Virus record (IMG/VR): IMGVR_UViG_2600255005_000007
Span: 1 to 8,899 of that record
DNA: 8,899 bases
Direction: 5' to 3' (one strand)
From: a virus
Lineage: Duplodnaviria; Heunggongvirae; Uroviricota; Caudoviricetes
The notes below the pieces were generated by a model. It saw only the letters and a list, made by a program, of their open reading frames with translations. It was not told where the DNA came from and ran no database searches. Each line of letters starts with the position of its first letter. Positions within the stretch are counted from its first letter, which is position 1. Below, piece by piece: positions 1 to 8,899 of this stretch. The position numbers and the translations under genes are program-made.

Positions 1-480
1 GTGATAAAGCGTGTTTTGCAGGCTGCGTTCGATGTCATCAACGCTGCGCCGCTGGCTGGCAGAGAGCGAGGCAATAAACGCTTCGGCTTTTTCCGGCGAC
101 TGCTGGCGATAAAGATTCGCCAGCCCGCGCACGGCGTTAGTGTTGCTACTGTCCATACGCAGCGTCTGCTGGTAATAGCGTTCAGCGGCGGGGTAATCTT
201 TGCGCGCCATCGCCACATCGCCCAGCCCCAGCACCGCATAGCTGTCGGCGTTATCGACATTGCGCGCCTGCTGGAACAGGCGTTCTGCCCGGTCGGGATT
301 ATTGGCTTTCAGCGCAGCATCGCCCTGCTGGATCGCCAGCCAGTAGCGATTCACCTTCAGCAGACTGTTCCATTTGTCGTTGTTGCTGCTGTGCGGATCC
401 AGCGCGAGGGCTTTTTCCAGATTCGCCACCGCATTAGCACGATCGCCATTCTGAGAATACGCCTGCCCCAGCGCCCCCGG
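1..480 (-). pseudogene. bcsC: Cellulose synthase operon protein C (BcsC) TPR-region fragment; 5' part of the gene missing (replaced by inserted DNA at about 480), 3' part continues beyond the window start
   Basis: Reverse-complement translation of 1-477 reads GALGQAYSQNGDRANAVANLEKALALDPHSSNNDKWNSLLKVNRYWLAIQQGDAALKANNPDRAERLFQQARNVDNADSYAVLGLGDVAMARKDYPAAERYYQQTLRMDSSNTNAVRGLANLYRQQSPEKAEAFIASLSASQRRSVDDIERSLQNTLYH, which I recognise as the TPR region of enterobacterial BcsC. Similarity stops at 478-483 and an in-frame stop follows at 496-498. Absent from the ORF track because the frame runs off the window edge. Confidence 0.7.
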
Positions 481-2088
481 AACGCGGCGAAAACATCAGA
501 GACGAATGCAGGTAACAGCGCGAAAGCGGCAGCTTCTTCAAAAACAGCCGCACAAAATGCAGCAACAGCGGCAGAACATTCAGAGACAAATGCCCGTGCG
601 TCAGAGGAAGCCTCCGCAGACAGTGAAGAGGCTTCCCGCCGTAATGCAGAGTCAGCCGCTGAAAATGCCGGAATCGCCACCACAAAAGCGCGGGAGGCCG
701 CAGCAGACGCAACAAAGGCCGGGCAGAAAAAGGATGAGGCTCTGTCGGCAGCGACACGAGCAGAAAAGGCGGCAGACCGCGCAGAAGCCGCAGCGGAAGT
801 GACTGCAGAGCCCTATGCGAATATAGTGCCGCCGCTGCCTGATGTATGGATACCGTTTAACGATACACTGGATATGATTACGGGGTTTTCGCCATCATAT
901 AAAAAGATTGTTATTGGTGACGATGAAATAACAATGCCAGGCGACAAGATTGTTAAGTTTAAACGTGCTTCAACAGCAACGTATATTAATAAGTCCGGCC
1001 AACTCAAGCTTGCTGAAGTTGATGAACCGCGATTTGAGCGCGATGGCTTATTGATTGAAGGACAGAGGACAAATTATCTGAGGAACTCAAATAAACCAGA
1101 CTCATGGACTGTTCATTCCGCACTGAATAAAACATTTGGCACTGATAAACAGGGGTTCAATTATGCCACGGTGACACCCACGGAAAGTATAGTGGGAACA
1201 ACAGGTGGCTATACTGTGCATGGTGTGGTTGCAGCAGACAGATTCCCGCTGGCAAGTGGTGAATGTTTCACTTTTTCGTGCCGGGTTAAAGGCGCTAAAG
1301 CACGATGCAGGTTAAGAGTTTCAGTTATTATTGGTGGAACAGATACATTCTCTGCTGACTCTTATCTTGATCTGGATACCCGGATCGCAACAGTAAGCGG
1401 TAATACATCCCTTATAACAGCCAAAGCTGAACAACAGGGCGAGTGGACCTACTATGAGGCCACTTATACAGCTAATACGGACATTGATACCGTTAACTGT
1501 GCTTTTTATATGACAAATAAAATAAGTAATGAGCCATTCTATGATGACTCAACATTAACCATGACGACGCCGCAAATTGAACTGGGCAATACGGCATCGT
1601 CATTTATTGTAACTACAATGCCAACAACACGCGCAAGTGATGTGGTTACTATCCCATCGCAGAATAACCTGTCAACACGGCCTTTTACGGTATTGTGCGA
1701 AGTAAGCAGGAACTGGAGTACACCGCCCAATGTTGCGCCAAGGATATTTGATGTTGGAGGGCACAGTATTGATGATAATTATTTATCGCTGGGGTTTGTT
1801 TCAACAGGAAAGATAAGCGCCAACGTAGGAATGGTTCAGCCACAAATTTCCTCAGATGGAGAAAGGTTCATTGTGGGTGTGAGAGCTAAATCTGATTTAT
1901 CAGTAAATGCAATATGCAGTGGTAATTATACAACAAACCTTAATGGTAAAATATTTGGAGTTACAGCAACATCGTACCGGTTTGGTGGGCAGACCGCAGC
2001 AGGAACGCGTCATTTGTTTGGACACATCAGAAATTTCAGAGTCTGGTTTAAAGAATTAAATGACAGGCAAATCAAGGAGGCAGTATGA
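481..2088 (+). CDS. Phage side tail fibre protein, shaft repeats plus C-terminal receptor-binding region; 5'-truncated and fused in frame to antisense bcsC sequence (ORF 1..2088)
   Basis: From about 490 the + frame gives Ser/Ala/Glu-rich SETNA-type repeats (SETNAGNSAKAAASSKTAAQNAATAAEHSETNARASEEASADSEEASRRNAESAAEN...) typical of lambdoid side-tail-fibre shafts, then about 430 aa ending in FGHIRNFRVWFKELNDRQIKE (2017-2085), which resembles the C-terminal motif of concanavalin-A/LamG-like lectin domains. No N-terminal tail-attachment domain is present. The first 160 codons of the ORF are antisense bcsC and not fibre sequence. Confidence 0.7.
   Translation, partial: NAAKTSETNAGNSAKAAASSKTAAQNAATAAEHSETNARASEEASADSEEASRRNAESAAENAGIATTKAREAAADATKAGQKKDEALSAATRAEKAADRAEAAAEVTAEPYANIVPPLPDVWIPFNDTLDMITGFSPSYKKIVIGDDEITMPGDKIVKFKRASTATYINKSGQLKLAEVDEPRFERDGLLIEGQRTNYLRNSNKPDSWTVHSALNKTFGTDKQGFNYATVTPTESIVGTTGGYTVHGVVAADRFPLASGECFTFSCRVKGAKARCRLRVSVIIGGTDTFSADSYLDLDTRIATVSGNTSLITAKAEQQGEWTYYEATYTANTDIDTVNCAFYMTNKISNEPFYDDSTLTMTTPQIELGNTASSFIVTTMPTTRASDVVTIPSQNNLSTRPFTVLCEVSRNWSTPPNVAPRIFDVGGHSIDDNYLSLGFVSTGKISANVGMVQPQISSDGERFIVGVRAKSDLSVNAICSGNYTTNLNGKIFGVTATSYRFGGQTAAGTRHLFGHIRNFRVWFKELNDRQIKEAV
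2074..2080 (+). promoter_or_regulatory. Shine-Dalgarno AAGGAGG for ORF 2085..2363
   Basis: AAGGAGG 4 nt upstream of ATG 2085; the ATG overlaps the fibre stop (ATGA 2085-2088), suggesting translational coupling. Confidence 0.55.
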
Positions 2089-2363
2089 AAGATTTAACTT
2101 TGAAATTTCCTGGTAACAGAGAGTTTAAATCCTTCCTGTCATCTCTTGACTGGGAGGAAGATGAAGACCTCCAGAATAAACTGTTAGTCGATGAAATTGG
2201 TTTCACCTACACAGAAACAGGGGTAACTGAAGAGGGAGAACCTGTCTGTATCCGGAATAACGGTTATTTTGTCAACATTCGCATTCTTGATGACTTGTTT
2301 GATGTTTCTGTATTCTCTGATTATGTCGTGGAGCTGGAAACACCGCTTCGGGAATGGAGCTGA
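2085..2363 (+). CDS. Hypothetical small acidic protein (92 aa) coupled to the tail fibre gene
   Basis: Complete ORF with strong SD and start overlapping the upstream stop. Asp/Glu-rich. No similarity to classic Tfa tail-fibre assembly proteins that I can recognise. Confidence 0.55.
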   Translation: MKDLTLKFPGNREFKSFLSSLDWEEDEDLQNKLLVDEIGFTYTETGVTEEGEPVCIRNNGYFVNIRILDDLFDVSVFSDYVVELETPLREWS

Positions 2364-2370
2364 AAGGAGG
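2364..2370 (+). promoter_or_regulatory. Shine-Dalgarno AAGGAGG for ORF 2376..2669
   Basis: AAGGAGG followed by 5 nt spacer and ATG 2376. Confidence 0.55.
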
Positions 2371-2375
2371 AAATA

Positions 2376-2669
2376 ATGGATATAAGCCCCTTACTTCATG
2401 CACTTTGTGCTGTGGCTGCGCAGATACTGGTTGGTCTTTTTACCGGAAACTGGGCTTACGGAGCGATAGCCGGTTGTACGTTCTTCATTGCGCGTGAACA
2501 TACCCAGGCAGAATATCGCTGGATTGAAATGTTCGGGCATGGCAAGCGAATGAATATGCCGTGGTGGGGCGGATTTGATCCGCGCGCGTGGGATGTGGCA
2601 AGCCTGATGGATTTTGCTGTGCCGGTGGTGGCGTGTCTGCTGGTCTGGCTGTTGGTTAATCGTGGGTGA
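2376..2669 (+). CDS. Hypothetical small membrane protein (97 aa, two predicted hydrophobic helices)
   Basis: Strong SD; hydrophobic stretches LLHALCAVAAQILVGLFTGNWAYGAIAGCTFFIA and LMDFAVPVVACLLVWLLV; lies 12 nt after the previous ORF. Confidence 0.5.
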   Translation: MDISPLLHALCAVAAQILVGLFTGNWAYGAIAGCTFFIAREHTQAEYRWIEMFGHGKRMNMPWWGGFDPRAWDVASLMDFAVPVVACLLVWLLVNRG

Positions 2670-2700
2670 AAAAAGGTGGGCTGTATATGCAACGGAGGAA

Positions 2701-3033
2701 GAAACCCGGGAGAAAGCGCGGATACAGAAACCGGGTGCCTGTCACATCTTCCGGCACTCGATGGCAACGCAGATGCTGGACAACGGCGCAGACACGCGGC
2801 ACATCCAGGCGATCCTCGGCCATGAGAAGCTGGAGACGACGCAGATCTACACGCGGGTAGCCATCGGTCACTTACAGGAAGTTCACGCGCTGACGCACCC
2901 GGAAGAGCAGGACGAGACGTGGACGGATCGGCACGTTGCGGATGCGGTGGCAGAGCCGCAGACGCGCCGGGAGCGTAATCACGCAGAGATGGAGCGGGCG
3001 CTGGTCAGCAGGAAACGCCGCCGGAGACGCTGA
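2701..3033 (+). pseudogene. Tyrosine recombinase (phage integrase / XerCD-like) C-terminal fragment, 5'-truncated
   Basis: Translation ETREKARIQKPGACHIFRHSMATQMLDNGADTRHIQAILGHEKLETTQIYTRVAIGHLQEVHALTHP matches the C-terminal catalytic box of tyrosine recombinases (H-x-x-R-H, LGH, TTQIYT with the catalytic Tyr). No N-terminal or core-binding domain lies upstream, where fibre-associated ORFs sit instead. The reported ORF 2614..3033 begins inside the previous gene in another frame. Confidence 0.55.
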
Positions 3034-3993
3034 TGCAGGCCGGAAGCGTGATCATCGCCGGACTGCCTGAAAAGTTAGCGGGCGATCCCTGTAAGGCCGT
3101 GGGGTGAGGTGCAGGGCAGACAACCGCCTTCCCTGGCGGTTGACTGCCCCCTGCCAGCGGAGTGCGCGGGGGTAAATGCCGTTCGCCCCGTGGAGGCAGG
3201 CGTGTCCCATGCGGCCACGGCGCACGGGGCAAACGTCATTCAACATAATGCGGGGGATTATGCGCACTCTCGCCGGGTGGCAACGGCGGCGAACCCGACC
3301 CGCTGTGCGCGGCTCGTGTTCGCACAATCCGCATTATGTCTTGCGCCCCCGCGTTCAGCCCCTTAACCAGTGCCACGCGCAGCAGCTCGCTGGCGCTCGC
3401 TCCTGCCGTCTCAGCGGCGGTGTCCTTCCTCAGCGCCGCAGTCGCCGCCATCCCTGGCGGCTCCGGTGCCGTTCTGCGGCGGCGTCATCGTGTGGCAGTC
3501 AGTCAGAAAAGGGTGTCGGCCTGGCGGCCTCCGCTTGTAAGGGCTTTATGCCCGCCCGGCGTCGTCTGGCTGCGGCGGCTCGTGCCGCGCAAAAAGGCCG
3601 CGCGTCACTCGTTCCCGCCTCGCCAGCTTCCGCTGCCCGCCCCGGTCCGGTGTGGTCATGCAAAGGCCAGCTCCGGTCAGGCAGCGGTGCCACAGAGCGC
3701 CGTTCCGTCGCTTGCGGACTCTCTGCCGCCCGCACCCGCAGACCCCGCGCCGTGGCCCCGCCATGCCGCCGGAGGCGGCCTGGCGGCCCCCCGTCACGGG
3801 TTGCCGGAAACGGACTTAGTGGAAAGCGGAATGACAGGTTCGTGGCGGTGGTGATATGGTGAGCGGGCGTGAAAACGCGCGTCGGGAAAGCCGGGTTAAC
3901 GTGCTGTTAAATAATTAAAAGGTGATAGCCGTGAAGCCAGAAACGGCGCGGGCGGTAGCGTGTTAAAAAGTATGACCCGCACCGGATCGTCCC

Positions 3994-4401
3994 GATGACC
4001 CGATAGGGCTGAGAGGCGGATTAAACTTATACCAATACGCGCCTAATCCAGTAAACTGGATCGATCCTTTGGGTTTGAAATGTGGGCAACCTGAATGGAC
4101 AAATCATGGATACAAACATTTTCCTCCAAAAAACAAATCATGGAAGGATATAATTAAATCAACAAAATCAGGCCCGGCAAAATATTCTCCAGATATTGAT
4201 ATTAAAACGTTGGAATACGATGTTTTTAATACAGGCACACCTGTTACGAACGGTAAACCATGGAAAGTAAAAGATATGGGAAAAGTTATTGGGGCCAGTG
4301 AGGGTAAAGAATCTCAATGGGTTCGAGTTGAACTTAGCGGTGGGACAATACATGGACATCCTATATCAATCGATGAATTCCGAAGGCTAACAACATCATG
4401 A
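3994..4401 (+). CDS. Orphan Rhs C-terminal toxin module 1 (core-end [27 protein letters not shown] at 3997-4077 plus about 105 aa toxin domain of unassigned family); no start codon, no upstream core
   Basis: Frame opens after TGA 3973-3975. Conserved Rhs core-end peptide, then [15 protein letters not shown]...[19 protein letters not shown]. First in-frame ATG lies deep inside the domain; the ORF track start at 4069 is a TTG. Confidence 0.65.
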
Positions 4402-4691
4402 ACATTGATTTCTTAGGAAAAAAAGGGAATATAGTTTTTAATGACTTCTCCCTGAAACAAAGCATCCCTCTTAATGAACAGCGAGATGAACTTAAGGAAG
4501 ATATGCTCCAGGTTGAATATCCTGGTGGGTATCTTTTGGATGTTGGGTGGCGACCATCTTTTGATATAAATGGGAAGTTTTATATTTGTTTAATAAAGGA
4601 TTTTGATTGGGATTATCCCATTTATAATGGTTCTGCGAAAGATATTGTCTCATTATTATTTGAAATTAACCAAGCTATAAATAAACTTTAA
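4398..4691 (+). CDS. Putative immunity protein for Rhs-CT 1 (97 aa)
   Basis: ATG overlaps toxin stop (ATGA 4398-4401); AT-rich small ORF directly downstream of a polymorphic toxin domain; followed by a terminator hairpin. Confidence 0.6.
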
Positions 4692-4707
4692 ATAAACTTT
4701 AAAAAAA

Positions 4708-4746
4708 CTGGGAAGAAAATTAAATCTTCCCGGCTTTTTATTATTT
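4708..4746. terminator. Bidirectional intrinsic terminator between convergent immunity gene 1 and SymE-like gene 1
   Basis: Stem CTGGGAAGA (4708-4716) / TCTTCCCGG (4725-4733) with 8 nt loop, followed by CTTTTTATTATTT on + strand and preceded by AAAAAAA (a T-tract on the minus strand). Confidence 0.55.
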
Positions 4747-5006
4747 AACTCTCGTTCAGCACACTAAACATCCCGTTCCGCATCCCCTTAACCGCCTGTT
4801 TGACCTGGTAAAGTTCCCTGCGCAGTTCCTGTACTTCGTTGTTATCCGCTAGCAGGATCAGGCAACCTTCCGAGATCTTCACGGTAACGCCCGTGCCGAT
4901 CTCAAATCCCGCTTCTCTCAGCCATTTGGCGCTGATTTTGATCACCGGCGTGTCGCTTCGGTTGGGCAGATAGCCCACGGTACAGTGGCGCTGTGTTTTG
5001 GAAATG
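4719..5006. repeat. Direct repeat copy A (about 288 bp), carrying part of the terminator and the SymE-like ORF
   Basis: 4719-5006 aligns with 7311-7599 at roughly 97 percent identity by eye (a handful of substitutions and one extra T). Similarity ends abruptly after ...GTTTTGGAAATG. Confidence 0.8.
4745..4978 (-). CDS. SymE-family (type I toxin SymE-like, AbrB/SpoVT-fold) protein, probably 5'-truncated
   Basis: Translation GYLPNRSDTPVIKISAKWLREAGFEIGTGVTVKISEGCLILLADNNEVQELRRELYQVKQ aligns with the conserved core of E. coli SymE (TV.Y...P.I...WL..AGF..GT.V.VK..EGC..L) as I recall it. Starts at GTG with no SD; frame is open upstream to a stop at 5063-5065 with no ATG. Confidence 0.6.
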   Translation of the reverse strand: MGYLPNRSDTPVIKISAKWLREAGFEIGTGVTVKISEGCLILLADNNEVQELRRELYQVKQAVKGMRNGMFSVLNES

Positions 5007-5171
5007 ATATTTTTGTATTTAACCTGCTGATTAGATAGTAAAATAAACTTCGTGCAGATAGCTTACTTTGTCAGGGTGTGGCGGTAGCGTATGAACTATG
5101 ACGTGATGGTTTTAGTGATTTATAGACGAAACTGACAGTACGATCCGGACTTCGATTAGATTGCGCGATTT

Positions 5172-5621
5172 GACCCGATAGGGCTGGCGGGGGGGCTGAA
5201 TCTTTATCAGTATGCGCCGAATCCGTTAAACTGGATCGATCCGCTTGGATTAAGTTGCTCTAGTGATGCAAAAAAATTATCTGGTAATTTAGGATCAGCA
5301 CCAAGTAGTCACTATCGACCACATCATATGGTTATGTCTAATTCCAGCGATGTGCGTATGCGGTGGTTACGTAGAAGGATGGATCGGTTAGGTATAGATA
5401 TAAACGATTCCAAAAATGGTGTATGGCTACCCAAAAACTCTGATTATCGGTTACCGGGGACAAAAGCTACTGCTCATGGTGGTGAAGGTGTACATGGAAA
5501 TGCATATAAACAACATGTGTGGGATACGTTGAAAAATGCAAGAACAAAAGCTGATTTTGAAGCAGGGCTTGCGCAACTTAAAGTAGAGCTAAGTACTGGC
5601 AAAACGTTTCCTGTCCAATAA
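5172..5621 (+). CDS. Orphan Rhs C-terminal toxin module 2 (core-end [27 protein letters not shown] at 5172-5252 plus HNH/AHH-type nuclease-like domain); no start codon at 5' end
   Basis: Frame opens after TAG 5157-5159. Domain contains PHHMV (HH at 5322-5327), NGVWLP (5415-5432) and [14 protein letters not shown], matching the His-His...Asn...His layout of AHH-family HNH-fold toxins. The ORF track start at 5328 is the Met inside the HHM motif. Confidence 0.65.
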
Positions 5622-5625
5622 GGAG
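5620..5625 (+). promoter_or_regulatory. Shine-Dalgarno AAGGAG for immunity gene 2
   Basis: AAGGAG, 9 nt spacer, ATG 5635; the SD overlaps the toxin stop TAA 5619-5621. Confidence 0.5.
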
Positions 5626-5634
5626 TATGATCAC

Positions 5635-6252
5635 ATGAAAGATTTTCTGAAAAGTTTATATGAAGATTACAATGGAAAGTATTCGGAACTGATAGAACAG
5701 ATGAACGGAGAAAAGGCTACTTGTAGATGGGGGTATGGTGTTATGCCTGCCTTCTCTATAGAACCTTATGCATCCGAGCTTTTAGGTCATAAACCGGGAC
5801 GAATGTTGAAAAATAACTCAATCGCAGGAGTAAATAAACAATGCTATTATGTTGATGAACAAAACAGGATAATAGAAGGAATTACATACGCCAGCCATCG
5901 TAAGAAAGATAATGAATGGATTGTGTATAGAAATTTTTATATTTACCAAGAAAATACCATTCTTGGGCTTTTGTATAGTAGTACATTTGAAGATAGTAAA
6001 AACACAGGATTGAATAAGATTGTATTTATAAGCATTGATAATAAATTAATAAATAATAAGTATACTTTCATGTATGATGGGGAGTATTCTGAGGTAGATT
6101 ATATTTATAATAAAGATAAAATAATAAAAATAGACCAAAGGGTATGGTCTTCGTTTTATTTTGAACGCACTTATCTGATAGAGTCAAATGATCCATTGAT
6201 TATTAATGAATACTTAGAAAATAGTGGGAACATCAGGATCTACCCTACTTAA
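5635..6252 (+). CDS. Putative immunity protein for Rhs-CT 2 (205 aa)
   Basis: Complete ORF with good SD immediately after the toxin domain; visibly AT-rich relative to flanking DNA. Confidence 0.6.
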   Translation: MKDFLKSLYEDYNGKYSELIEQMNGEKATCRWGYGVMPAFSIEPYASELLGHKPGRMLKNNSIAGVNKQCYYVDEQNRIIEGITYASHRKKDNEWIVYRNFYIYQENTILGLLYSSTFEDSKNTGLNKIVFISIDNKLINNKYTFMYDGEYSEVDYIYNKDKIIKIDQRVWSSFYFERTYLIESNDPLIINEYLENSGNIRIYPT

Positions 6253-6357
6253 TTTATCAAAGTAAGAGACTAATATATGGACTATGATGCGGCTGTTTCA
6301 GGGATATGCGATTGAAGCCAGTAGTATGATCCTGCGATGGGGTAGATTCACCGTCCT

Positions 6358-6801
6358 GATCCGATAGGGCTGGCGGGGGGAATAAACCTCTATGCTTATG
6401 CGCCGAATCCAGTAAACCACATTGATCCTCTTGGGCTATCTTGTGGAAAGGTTGGTAACGTTGAATATCGTAATTTTGAGCGTTCTCCGGGAATGTTTTC
6501 TCGGTTATTAAAGAATAAACGTGACTTTGATTATGTTGCCAGATATAACATCTCAAGATATAAAGCTACATTGAGAAAAAATAATCCGGATGGTTTTGGT
6601 AATATTAGCCATTATTTCGATGGTGTAGATGCAAAAGGAAATAAAGTCGTTATTGAGGTGGCGAATACAGGGCATAAATCTTCAAGCGGTGGTTTTGAGC
6701 CTCCACATATTAAAATTCAAATAAAAGACGCTGATAACAAAGTGATACATAATGCCAAATATTTTTTGGAAGATGATATATATAGAATTACGGGCAAATA
6801 A
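6358..6801 (+). CDS. Orphan Rhs C-terminal toxin module 3 (core-end [27 protein letters not shown] at 6358-6438 plus about 120 aa toxin domain of unassigned family); no start codon at 5' end
   Basis: Frame opens after TAG 6343-6345. Domain SCGKVGNVEYRNFERSPGMFSRLLKNKRDFDYVARYNISRYKATLRKNNPDGFGNISHYFDGVDAKGNKVVIEVANTGHKSSSGGFEPPHIKIQIKDADNKVIHNAKYFLEDDIYRITGK. The ORF track start at 6493 is an internal Met. Confidence 0.65.
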   Translation, partial: DPIGLAGGINLYAYAPNPVNHIDPLGLSCGKVGNVEYRNFERSPGMFSRLLKNKRDFDYVARYNISRYKATLRKNNPDGFGNISHYFDGVDAKGNKVVIEVANTGHKSSSGGFEPPHIKIQIKDADNKVIHNAKYFLEDDIYRITGK

Positions 6802-7260
6802 ATGAAAAATATTAGAGAGTTAAATAATGCAGAATTCTCCGGGCTTATTAACAATGCTTTACCATTCTTACATATTAATCCTATAAGCGAAGCTGTTTGT
6901 ATTCATGCAGAAGCTTATAAAAGTGGTATTGATGTTAACTATATCCGTTGCAACGTTGACTGGGAGGGGTTTTCTTCTTTAACTGAAGCGTTGGAAACGT
7001 TATACCATGAATTATTTAAAGATGGTATTCCATCAGGCGAATTGTTGTTTTTTTACCCGTTTGATAGAACAAAGAAAGGGAATTATGGTGTTATACTGGA
7101 ATCATCTCAGCTATTAGATTTCTTAATAAAAGAGCATTTGAAGATTTATCCTGAATGTTTTAATGTAGAAATGTGTAGCTTCGGTTTTTATTTTATAGAT
7201 CACGAAATATTTTACGGCATGGAACATCCTGATTTTTTATATAGTTTCTGTGTAAGATAA
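6802..7260 (+). CDS. Putative immunity protein for Rhs-CT 3 (152 aa)
   Basis: ATG immediately follows the toxin stop (TAA-ATG at 6799-6804); AT-rich; followed by a terminator hairpin. Confidence 0.6.
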   Translation: MKNIRELNNAEFSGLINNALPFLHINPISEAVCIHAEAYKSGIDVNYIRCNVDWEGFSSLTEALETLYHELFKDGIPSGELLFFYPFDRTKKGNYGVILESSQLLDFLIKEHLKIYPECFNVEMCSFGFYFIDHEIFYGMEHPDFLYSFCVR

Positions 7261-7296
7261 TTAATAAAGTGAGGAGTATATTTCTCTTTCTTAATC

Positions 7297-7335
7297 GCCG
7301 GGAAAGGTAGATTAAATCTTCCCGGCTTTTTTATT
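7297..7335 (+). terminator. Intrinsic terminator after immunity gene 3
   Basis: Perfect 8 bp stem GCCGGGAA (7297-7304) / TTCCCGGC (7319-7326) followed by TTTTTTATT. No T-tract in the minus-strand direction. Confidence 0.55.
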
Positions 7336-7599
7336 ATTTAACGTTCGTTCAGCACACTAAACATCCCGTCCCGCATCCCCTTAACAGCCTGTTTAACCTG
7401 ATAAAGTTCCCTGCGCAGTTCCTGTACTTCGTTGTTATCCGCTAGCAGGATCAGGCAACCTTCCGAGATCTTCACGGTAACGCCCGTGCCGATCTCAAAT
7501 CCCGCTTCTCTCAGCCATTTGGCGCTGATTTTGATCACCGGCGTGTCGCTGCGGTTGGGCAGATAGCCCACGGTACAGTGGCGCTGTGTTTTGGAAATG
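7311..7599. repeat. Direct repeat copy B (about 289 bp), partner of 4719-5006
   Basis: See copy A. The right end abuts GC-rich primase-like sequence at 7599/7600. Confidence 0.8.
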
Positions 7600-7619
7600 G
7601 TGGGCCGCACTGCTGGCAC
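7338..7619 (-). CDS. SymE-family toxin-like protein, copy 2; the N-terminal 10 codons come from unrelated sequence beyond the repeat boundary
   Basis: Near-identical to copy 1 over the shared part (ISKTQRHCTVGYLPNRSDTPVIKISAKWLREAGFEIGTGVTVKISEGCLILLADNNEVQELRRELYQVKQAVKGMRDGMFSVLNER). The ORF start at 7619 is a GTG lying antisense inside the primase-like region, with no SD. Confidence 0.55.
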   Translation of the reverse strand: MPAVRPTISKTQRHCTVGYLPNRSDTPVIKISAKWLREAGFEIGTGVTVKISEGCLILLADNNEVQELRRELYQVKQAVKGMRDGMFSVLNER

Positions 7620-8899
7620 ACGGCGTCAGGCAGGTACTGATCGCCTACGACAACGATCCGGCGGGCAATGAGGCGGCGGTGAAACTGGCTTCTTCCTTAG
7701 CCGCTTCCGGGATCGCCACGTTCCGCGTACTGTTCCCGGCGGGCATGGATGCGAACGGTTATCTGTGCAGTGTGGCAGAGCCGGAACAGGCGTTCAGTCT
7801 GTTGCTGGATGGCGCGGTGCCCATGAGTGACCTGGCCGATGCGGAGAGTATCGCGCCGCAGGCCAGCGCGGAGCCTGCACACCTGACTTCATTAGCTGCC
7901 GGGGTTGCGGTCTTACCCGCAGCCGCCGCGCCTGCACCGGGCGTCAGCGTGGAAACCCTGGCCGATGGCGAACTGATGGTAGCCTTACCCGGCGAACGCT
8001 GGACTATCAGGGGCGTAAGCCGCAAACCGAACGTCGCCGCGATGAAGGTCAATGCGCAGGTGCTGGACACCAACAGCGGCGTGGTGTTCGCTGATGCGGT
8101 GGATATGATGAGCGCCCGCAGCCGTTCCGGTTATGCGCGGGCCGCAGCGGCAGAGCTTGGGCTTGCCGAAGGCGACCTGCGCCGTTCGCTGGGTAAGGTG
8201 CTGCTGGCGCTGGAGCACTGGCAGGCGGCACCGGAGCCGGAGAGCGTCGCCCCGGAGATGACGCCGGAAGATCGGGAGGCGGCGCTGGATCTGCTGCGCG
8301 ACGAGTGTCTTGCCGGGCGCATCGCTTCTGATATGGCGGCGTGTGGCGTGGTGGGTGAGTCCACCAACCTGACGGCGGCGTATCTGGCGGCGGTGTCACG
8401 CAAACTGGAGCGCCCGCTTGCCGTTCTCATCCAGTCGTCGAGCGCGGCGGGTAAGTCCAGCTTAATGGATGCGGTGCTCAATCTGATCCCGCCAGAGGAA
8501 CGGCTGCAATACAGCGCCATGACCGGGCAGAGCCTGTTCTACCTCGGCGAAACCAACCTGCAACACAAGATCCTCGCCATCGCAGAAGAAGAAGGTGTGC
8601 GCCAGGCGGCGTATGCGCTGAAACTGTTGCAATCAGACGGGGAACTGACCATCGCCAGTACGGGCAAGGACGACGCCAGCGGCAACCTGGTCACCAAACA
8701 GTACACGGTGAAAGGCCCGGTGATGCTGATGCTGACCACCACGGCGATCGACGTCGATGAAGAACTGTTAAACCGCTGCCTGGTGCTGACGGTGAACGAG
8801 TCGCGGGAGCAGACGGAGGCCGAACTGCTCTTTAACAATTTATCAGACAATCTGTGTGGGCACTCGAAGATACGGATTCTTAACGTCCTCGGACGATAA
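7600..8899 (+). CDS. Toprim-domain primase-like protein with downstream P-loop-like region, N-terminally truncated at the repeat junction (integrative/conjugative-element type replication or mobilisation protein)
   Basis: VLIAYDNDPAGNEAAVKL resembles the Toprim DxD motif region; a Walker-A-like SSSAAGKSSL follows after an Ala/Pro-rich linker. GC-rich coding sequence with good third-position GC bias. The conserved Toprim Glu region expected upstream is missing. The reported start at 7586 is a GTG inside the SymE repeat. Confidence 0.55.

Follow-up and report, generated by a model that had tools for sequence, protein, structure and literature searches.

The 8,899-nucleotide stretch of DNA analysed here (referred to throughout as the window) sets part of bcsC, read on one strand, directly against a phage tail-fibre gene read on the other, and the question that it raises is whether this junction records a real disruption of the cellulose operon or a fault in the deposited sequence. 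The earlier note had taken the former position: foreign DNA was held to have replaced the 5′ portion of bcsC at about position 480 and the operon to be probably inactivated, with misassembly named as a possibility to exclude. The window is an exact substring (bases ~4231089–4239987) of AEMF01000001.1 (GCA_000208585.2), the lone 4,463,584-bp record of a 2011 draft assembly for Escherichia sp. TW11588. This strain was isolated from soil and belongs to cryptic clade IV, now placed in E. ruysiae (strain tables). No N characters were present in the 28.9 kb of this record that were examined.

The minus strand of positions 1..478 carries an internal fragment of bcsC from the TPR region, corresponding to codons ~306–464 of 1157 by alignment to the E. 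ruysiae gene. Over this region the identity of the gene was borne out: positions 1–477/478 match annotated bcsC at 90–97% DNA identity in 5403 of 5426 complete E. coli genomes, the closest intact gene is the 1157-aa bcsC of E. ruysiae CABVLQ01 (98.9% identity to the window fragment), and the translation is a clean TPR segment that matches TPR Pfam families, as had been read from the letters alone. The alignment to a close relative, which the earlier note had called for, places the break at BcsC codon 306; 305 N-terminal codons are therefore absent at this place, including the signal peptide (MRKFTLNILTLSLGLAV...), in good agreement with the approximately 300 codons estimated before. To the left, the bcsC piece extends beyond the window as far as codon ~932, where it is cut a second time, leaving a piece of ~1.9 kb that comprises the middle of the gene only. 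A complete bcsC, with signal peptide, TPR region, C-terminal BCSC_C beta-barrel and a position downstream of bcsZ, was thus not found (only codons ~306–932 are present), and neither bcsZ nor bcsB adjoins the fragment in the TW11588 record. Codons 1–305 were not found within 10 kb on either side, and a comparison of the N-terminal 305 amino acids with a collection of 5.8 billion proteins yielded 41 clusters of fragments, none of them on the 4,463,584-bp record, although cluster representatives may hide a match. The bcsC side of the break does not lie at a known repeat (median of 1 copy per E. coli genome).

On the other side of the break, positions 479..2088 (plus strand) carry a lambdoid prophage side tail-fibre gene that lacks its first 415 nt (~138 codons), as assigned by alignment and PHROG matching. 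Similarity to E. coli prophages (98–99.8%) begins at 476–479, 415 nt inside a reference gene of 2025 nt, and PHROG matching assigns the product to family 1419 (‘tail protein’; E = 6e-198), confirming the earlier reading of a tail fibre on the opposite strand beyond position ~480. E. coli genomes carry the absent 5′ module in multiple copies (in a median of 2 and up to 7 places) and the part that is kept in a single copy, so position 479 marks a boundary between multi-copy and single-copy sequence. The same boundary (L001 3003|3004, equivalent to window position 479) separates two modules of the tail fibre, with a widely shared, multi-copy N-terminal module upstream and a rarer, single-copy receptor-binding part downstream; in some annotated E. 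coli records the gene is given as two CDS that meet exactly here. The rest of the prophage piece (2085..2707, plus strand; alignment and PHROG) contains two small phage ORFs (2085–2363, PHROG 1361; 2376–2669, PHROG 1443) and, at its end, the first bases of a tail-fibre-assembly remnant, giving a total of ~2.2 kb (479–2707).

Base-level alignment to the closest bcsC and the closest tail-fibre gene places the join between them at 478|479. The join is blunt, with 0 shared bases, no duplication and no N spacer, and no att site, IS end or integrase marks it. A prophage insertion is expected to leave a duplicated att core, with the other half of the target beyond the prophage, and 478|479 shows no repeat of this kind. 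Neither do the aligned joins, each of which passes straight from one known gene into another, show the terminal inverted repeats, transposase or target-site duplication of an IS or transposon, and the 28.9 kb of the TW11588 record contain no transposase gene. The junction 40-mer is absent from the GTDB species-representative genomes, and the bcsC and tail-fibre sides occur together in none of the 5426 complete E. coli genomes. In the chimeric ORF 1..2088, on the plus strand, the tail-fibre fragment is fused in frame to an open frame that runs antisense to bcsC. The earlier description of this ORF as artificial-looking holds: it exists, the source record annotates it as a gene of 695 aa, and no other assembly on record has the products that span the junctions (695 aa and 437 aa).

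The junction is not the only one of its kind. Within ~21 kb there are eight or more joins, which link fragments from six or more unlinked loci and are all absent from close relatives, and the supposed replacement of the bcsC 5′ portion by foreign DNA, being one of these joins and bearing no hallmark of insertion, is not upheld. The six joins that could be aligned to both parents share 0–2 bases, and none shows a duplication, IS end, att repeat or spacer. Besides 478|479, the window itself holds three mid-gene joins. At 2707..2708, with 2 shared bases, the phage piece (in its tail-fibre-assembly remnant) meets the middle of a xerC-type integrase gene; at 7601..7602 a SymE gene meets the middle of a primase gene; and at 8821|8822 the primase gene meets a putative rrn leader. 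Across the 28.9 kb, the record runs from sitABCD through an inverted Rhs-array end to bcsC codons ~306–932; these are followed by the 5′-cut tail fibre with its two phage ORFs and the 3′ third of xerC, then by a GC-rich stretch, three orphan Rhs tips, SymE and an internal primase fragment, and then by the rrn leader, a complete 16S gene, 45 nt of spacer and an internal fragment of a YadA-type adhesin gene that belongs at the mtlR–lldP locus. The last part of the order is mobB-mobA-yihD-rdoA-dsbA-yihF-yihG.

The piece between the second and third joins of the window (2708..7601, plus strand) derives from an Rhs orphan array and is 99.98% identical to E. ruysiae L007 7072–11968. The 3′ third of xerC extends to 3033, and a GC-rich stretch of ~0.9 kb (3034–3950; 67–70% GC) separates it from the first orphan Rhs tip. 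In E. coli Rhs arrays this stretch is conserved at ~90%; no Pfam family matches its longest ORF (3176–3862), and nothing in Rfam matches the stretch above the gathering threshold. Orphan Rhs C-terminal tips, each with a downstream ORF at the position of an immunity gene, occupy about 3997–4691, 5171–6252 and 6358–7260, the ORF downstream of the second tip (5635–6252) encoding 205 aa. All three tips start at the conserved DPxGL core end, and the second has an AHH nuclease domain, the first and third being without a Pfam match. SymE genes are present on the minus strand at 4745–4978 and, cut at the 5′ end, at 7338–7601. The following piece (7602..8821, plus strand) is an internal fragment of a CHC2/Toprim primase gene with 100% identity to L007 13465–14684. 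Between these two pieces, the join at 7601|7602 skips 1496 bp of the sister sequence (L007 11969–13464), comprising the SymE 5′ end, an HTH gene and the 5′ part of the primase gene. Its left side is the edge of a 164-nt exact repeat, and in a self-comparison of the sister Rhs array (20 kb) one of four Rhs-array breakpoints fell at a repeat edge.

The Rhs orphan arrays of E. coli and E. ruysiae (L004, L005 and L007) have an organization of their own, in which a module with the order SymE, HTH regulator, ~980-aa CHC2/Toprim primase, XerC-type recombinase, GC-rich stretch and orphan Rhs tip is present twice or more per array. This repetition suggests that the module moves or recombines as a cassette and so brings in new Rhs toxin tips.

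The window closes at 8822..8899 (plus strand) with what we take to be rrn leader sequence of E. coli type, which, past the end of the window, leads directly into a complete 16S gene. With ~150 nt of leader and ~45 nt of spacer (L006 13188–14925), this lone 16S gene is flanked by the primase and adhesin fragments; no promoters were found upstream of it, and no tRNA, 23S or 5S downstream. A 16S gene that lies between gene fragments without promoters, spacer tRNA, 23S or 5S is best read as a collapsed-repeat contig, of which 8822..8899 is the beginning.

Intact counterparts of the Rhs-array genes are found in four sister assemblies (L007–L010: CABVLQ01 of E. ruysiae, a pair of metagenome scaffolds and another NCBI draft genome), which share the Rhs array at 99–100% identity, with primase and xerC intact. 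The sister assemblies are collinear, without any of the joins of TW11588, and in E. ruysiae CABVLQ01 the 1157-aa bcsC lies intact within a contiguous bcs operon. Moreover, two pairs of pieces that are separated in the TW11588 record adjoin base-for-base in intact genomes. The prophage piece (479–2707) has L002 6229 as its last base, and L002 6230 is the first base of the sitD block, which lies inverted ~6 kb upstream of the window; the primase piece (7602–8821) ends at L007 14684, and another block, inverted ~9 kb upstream, begins at L007 14685. As the members of each pair abut to the base in the intact sequences and lie inverted and kilobases apart here, continuous DNA has been cut between adjacent bases and its halves scattered.

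Relative to near-identical relatives, sitC (L018 2334–3190), the second copy of xerC (L006 801–1902) and bcsC of the TW11588 record are all split by 1-base indels, mostly in homopolymers. Such gene-splitting homopolymer indels are the mark of a low-accuracy draft consensus, and they indicate that sequencing errors are present throughout AEMF01000001.1. In bcsC the change is a 1-nt deletion at about window position 12 that shifts the frame (SLQNTLYH in the window against SLQNDRLSQQ in E. ruysiae). As this one gap is found against both E. coli 06-00048 and E. ruysiae, it could be argued that, the join aside, bcsC of TW11588 is a genuine pseudogene. We consider this unlikely, because similar indels break two other genes in the same 29 kb and are typical of sequencing error.

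Together, these results make it very probable that unrelated sequences of a draft pseudomolecule were falsely joined at 478|479, where contig ends were pasted together or through an equivalent error of an assembler or scaffolder, and that the junction is not biological. This reading draws on the blunt, multi-fragment mosaic, the separated pieces that abut elsewhere, the lone 16S gene and the repeat boundary on the phage side, together with the homopolymer indels, the intact sister loci and the restriction of the junctions to one assembly. Short assembly pieces would have been placed end to end, in arbitrary orientation and without gap characters; the pieces resemble contigs or the nodes of an assembly graph, and some of them end at the edge of a repeat. 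Base 478 would then be the end of a 1.9-kb piece from the middle of bcsC, and base 479 the start of a 2.2-kb piece, at the point where the unique part of the tail fibre begins. We infer that contigs were pasted together at the joins, or that an assembler erred to the same effect, and that TW11588 itself has a contiguous bcsC, as do the sister strains. If 478|479 is a false join, the sequence says nothing on the state of bcsC or on cellulose production. The description given in the earlier note therefore stands in its parts (the TPR segment, the break, the absent codons and the chimeric ORF), and the misassembly that it had thought necessary to exclude is the explanation favoured by the mosaic of false joins; its reading of a biological inactivation does not stand, as the sisters are collinear with an intact bcsC and the join is best explained as an artefact. 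The record matches what is seen in draft pseudomolecules concatenated without gaps, which are alike in their blunt joins between unlinked pieces of 1.2–4.9 kb, in a collapsed rRNA repeat, in a break between multi-copy and single-copy sequence, in chimeric ORFs confined to one assembly and in frameshifting homopolymer errors. It differs in one respect: concatenated pseudomolecules normally carry N spacers that flag the joins, and the 28.9 kb examined of the TW11588 record are without them.

The main biological alternative is a real event in TW11588, either prophage insertion or a deletion or rearrangement, that replaced the 5′ third of bcsC and so inactivated cellulose export. The deposited sequence does contain the junction, a frameshift is present in the bcsC piece as well, and the protein-cluster search did not find the 5′ part of bcsC elsewhere in the record; furthermore, bcs operons do decay in some Escherichia and Shigella lineages. 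We nevertheless regard such an event as very improbable. Both genes are cut mid-gene, bcsC at both of its ends; no att site, duplication, integrase or IS is present at 478|479; and the prophage piece is only 2.2 kb long, is itself joined to the middle of xerC and has its continuation, sitD, inverted 6 kb upstream. A real event would also have to account for at least eight breaks among at least six unlinked loci in 21 kb, an orphan 16S gene included, with every join absent from the sister genomes. A lambdoid prophage integrated between attL and attR likewise brings a host gene up against phage DNA, but here an integrase-proximal end and an att duplication are both lacking, the prophage is incomplete, and the phage sequence starts within a gene and ends 2.2 kb on in an unrelated one. 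Natural inactivation of a cellulose operon, of which the bcsQ stop codon in E. coli K-12 is an example, would also leave a defective bcs operon, but it takes the form of point mutations, IS insertions or clean deletions at the native locus, whereas the bcsC fragment in the TW11588 record is separated both from bcsZ/bcsB and from the 3′ end of the gene. To break bcsC, the prophage, the Rhs array, an rrn operon and the adhesin gene all at once would take a chromothripsis-like cluster of at least eight blunt rearrangements, which we consider extremely improbable. Two or three inversions that might restore the lost adjacencies were also considered and rejected, as each mends one adjacency and leaves the ends at bcsC, 16S, the adhesin and xerC unexplained.

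How the false join came about is a separate matter. An assembler or a reference-guided scaffolder may have introduced chimeric joins, or cut and re-ordered contigs, in place of simple pasting; we hold this as a tentative explanation. The matching pieces lie 6–9 kb apart and are not spread over the 4.46 Mb, which suggests guided ordering, as does the placement of the 16S piece near mobB, close to the position of rrnA on the E. coli K-12 map. The exact, overlap-free abutment of the separated pieces would also fit graph nodes or cut contigs. Against this, the sequence features are the same as those of plain concatenation, and the consequence for the finding is identical. Restriction and ligation products were rejected as a source of the joins: CCGG or GGCC motifs are present near some of them, inconsistently from one join to another.

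The bcsC/tail-fibre junction is thus almost certainly not a real feature of the organism. Although AEMF01000001.1 resembles a finished 4.46-Mb contig, it holds unmarked false joins, chimeric called genes and frameshifts, and scans of it will yield spurious gene disruptions, fusions and rearrangements. The record is unfit for structural or gene-integrity inference, and E. ruysiae GCA_902498915.1 is the assembly to use for comparison.

Finally, the alignments drew attention to E. coli 06-00048 (NZ_CP015229; L003 and L020), which carries a second bcsC beside pflA that is 97% identical to the window, compared with ~94% for other E. coli. The YadA-type adhesin gene of the same strain is 99% identical to the TW11588 fragment, compared with 82–83% for other E. 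coli, and the E. ruysiae-like DNA in this strain may reflect introgression between Escherichia species.
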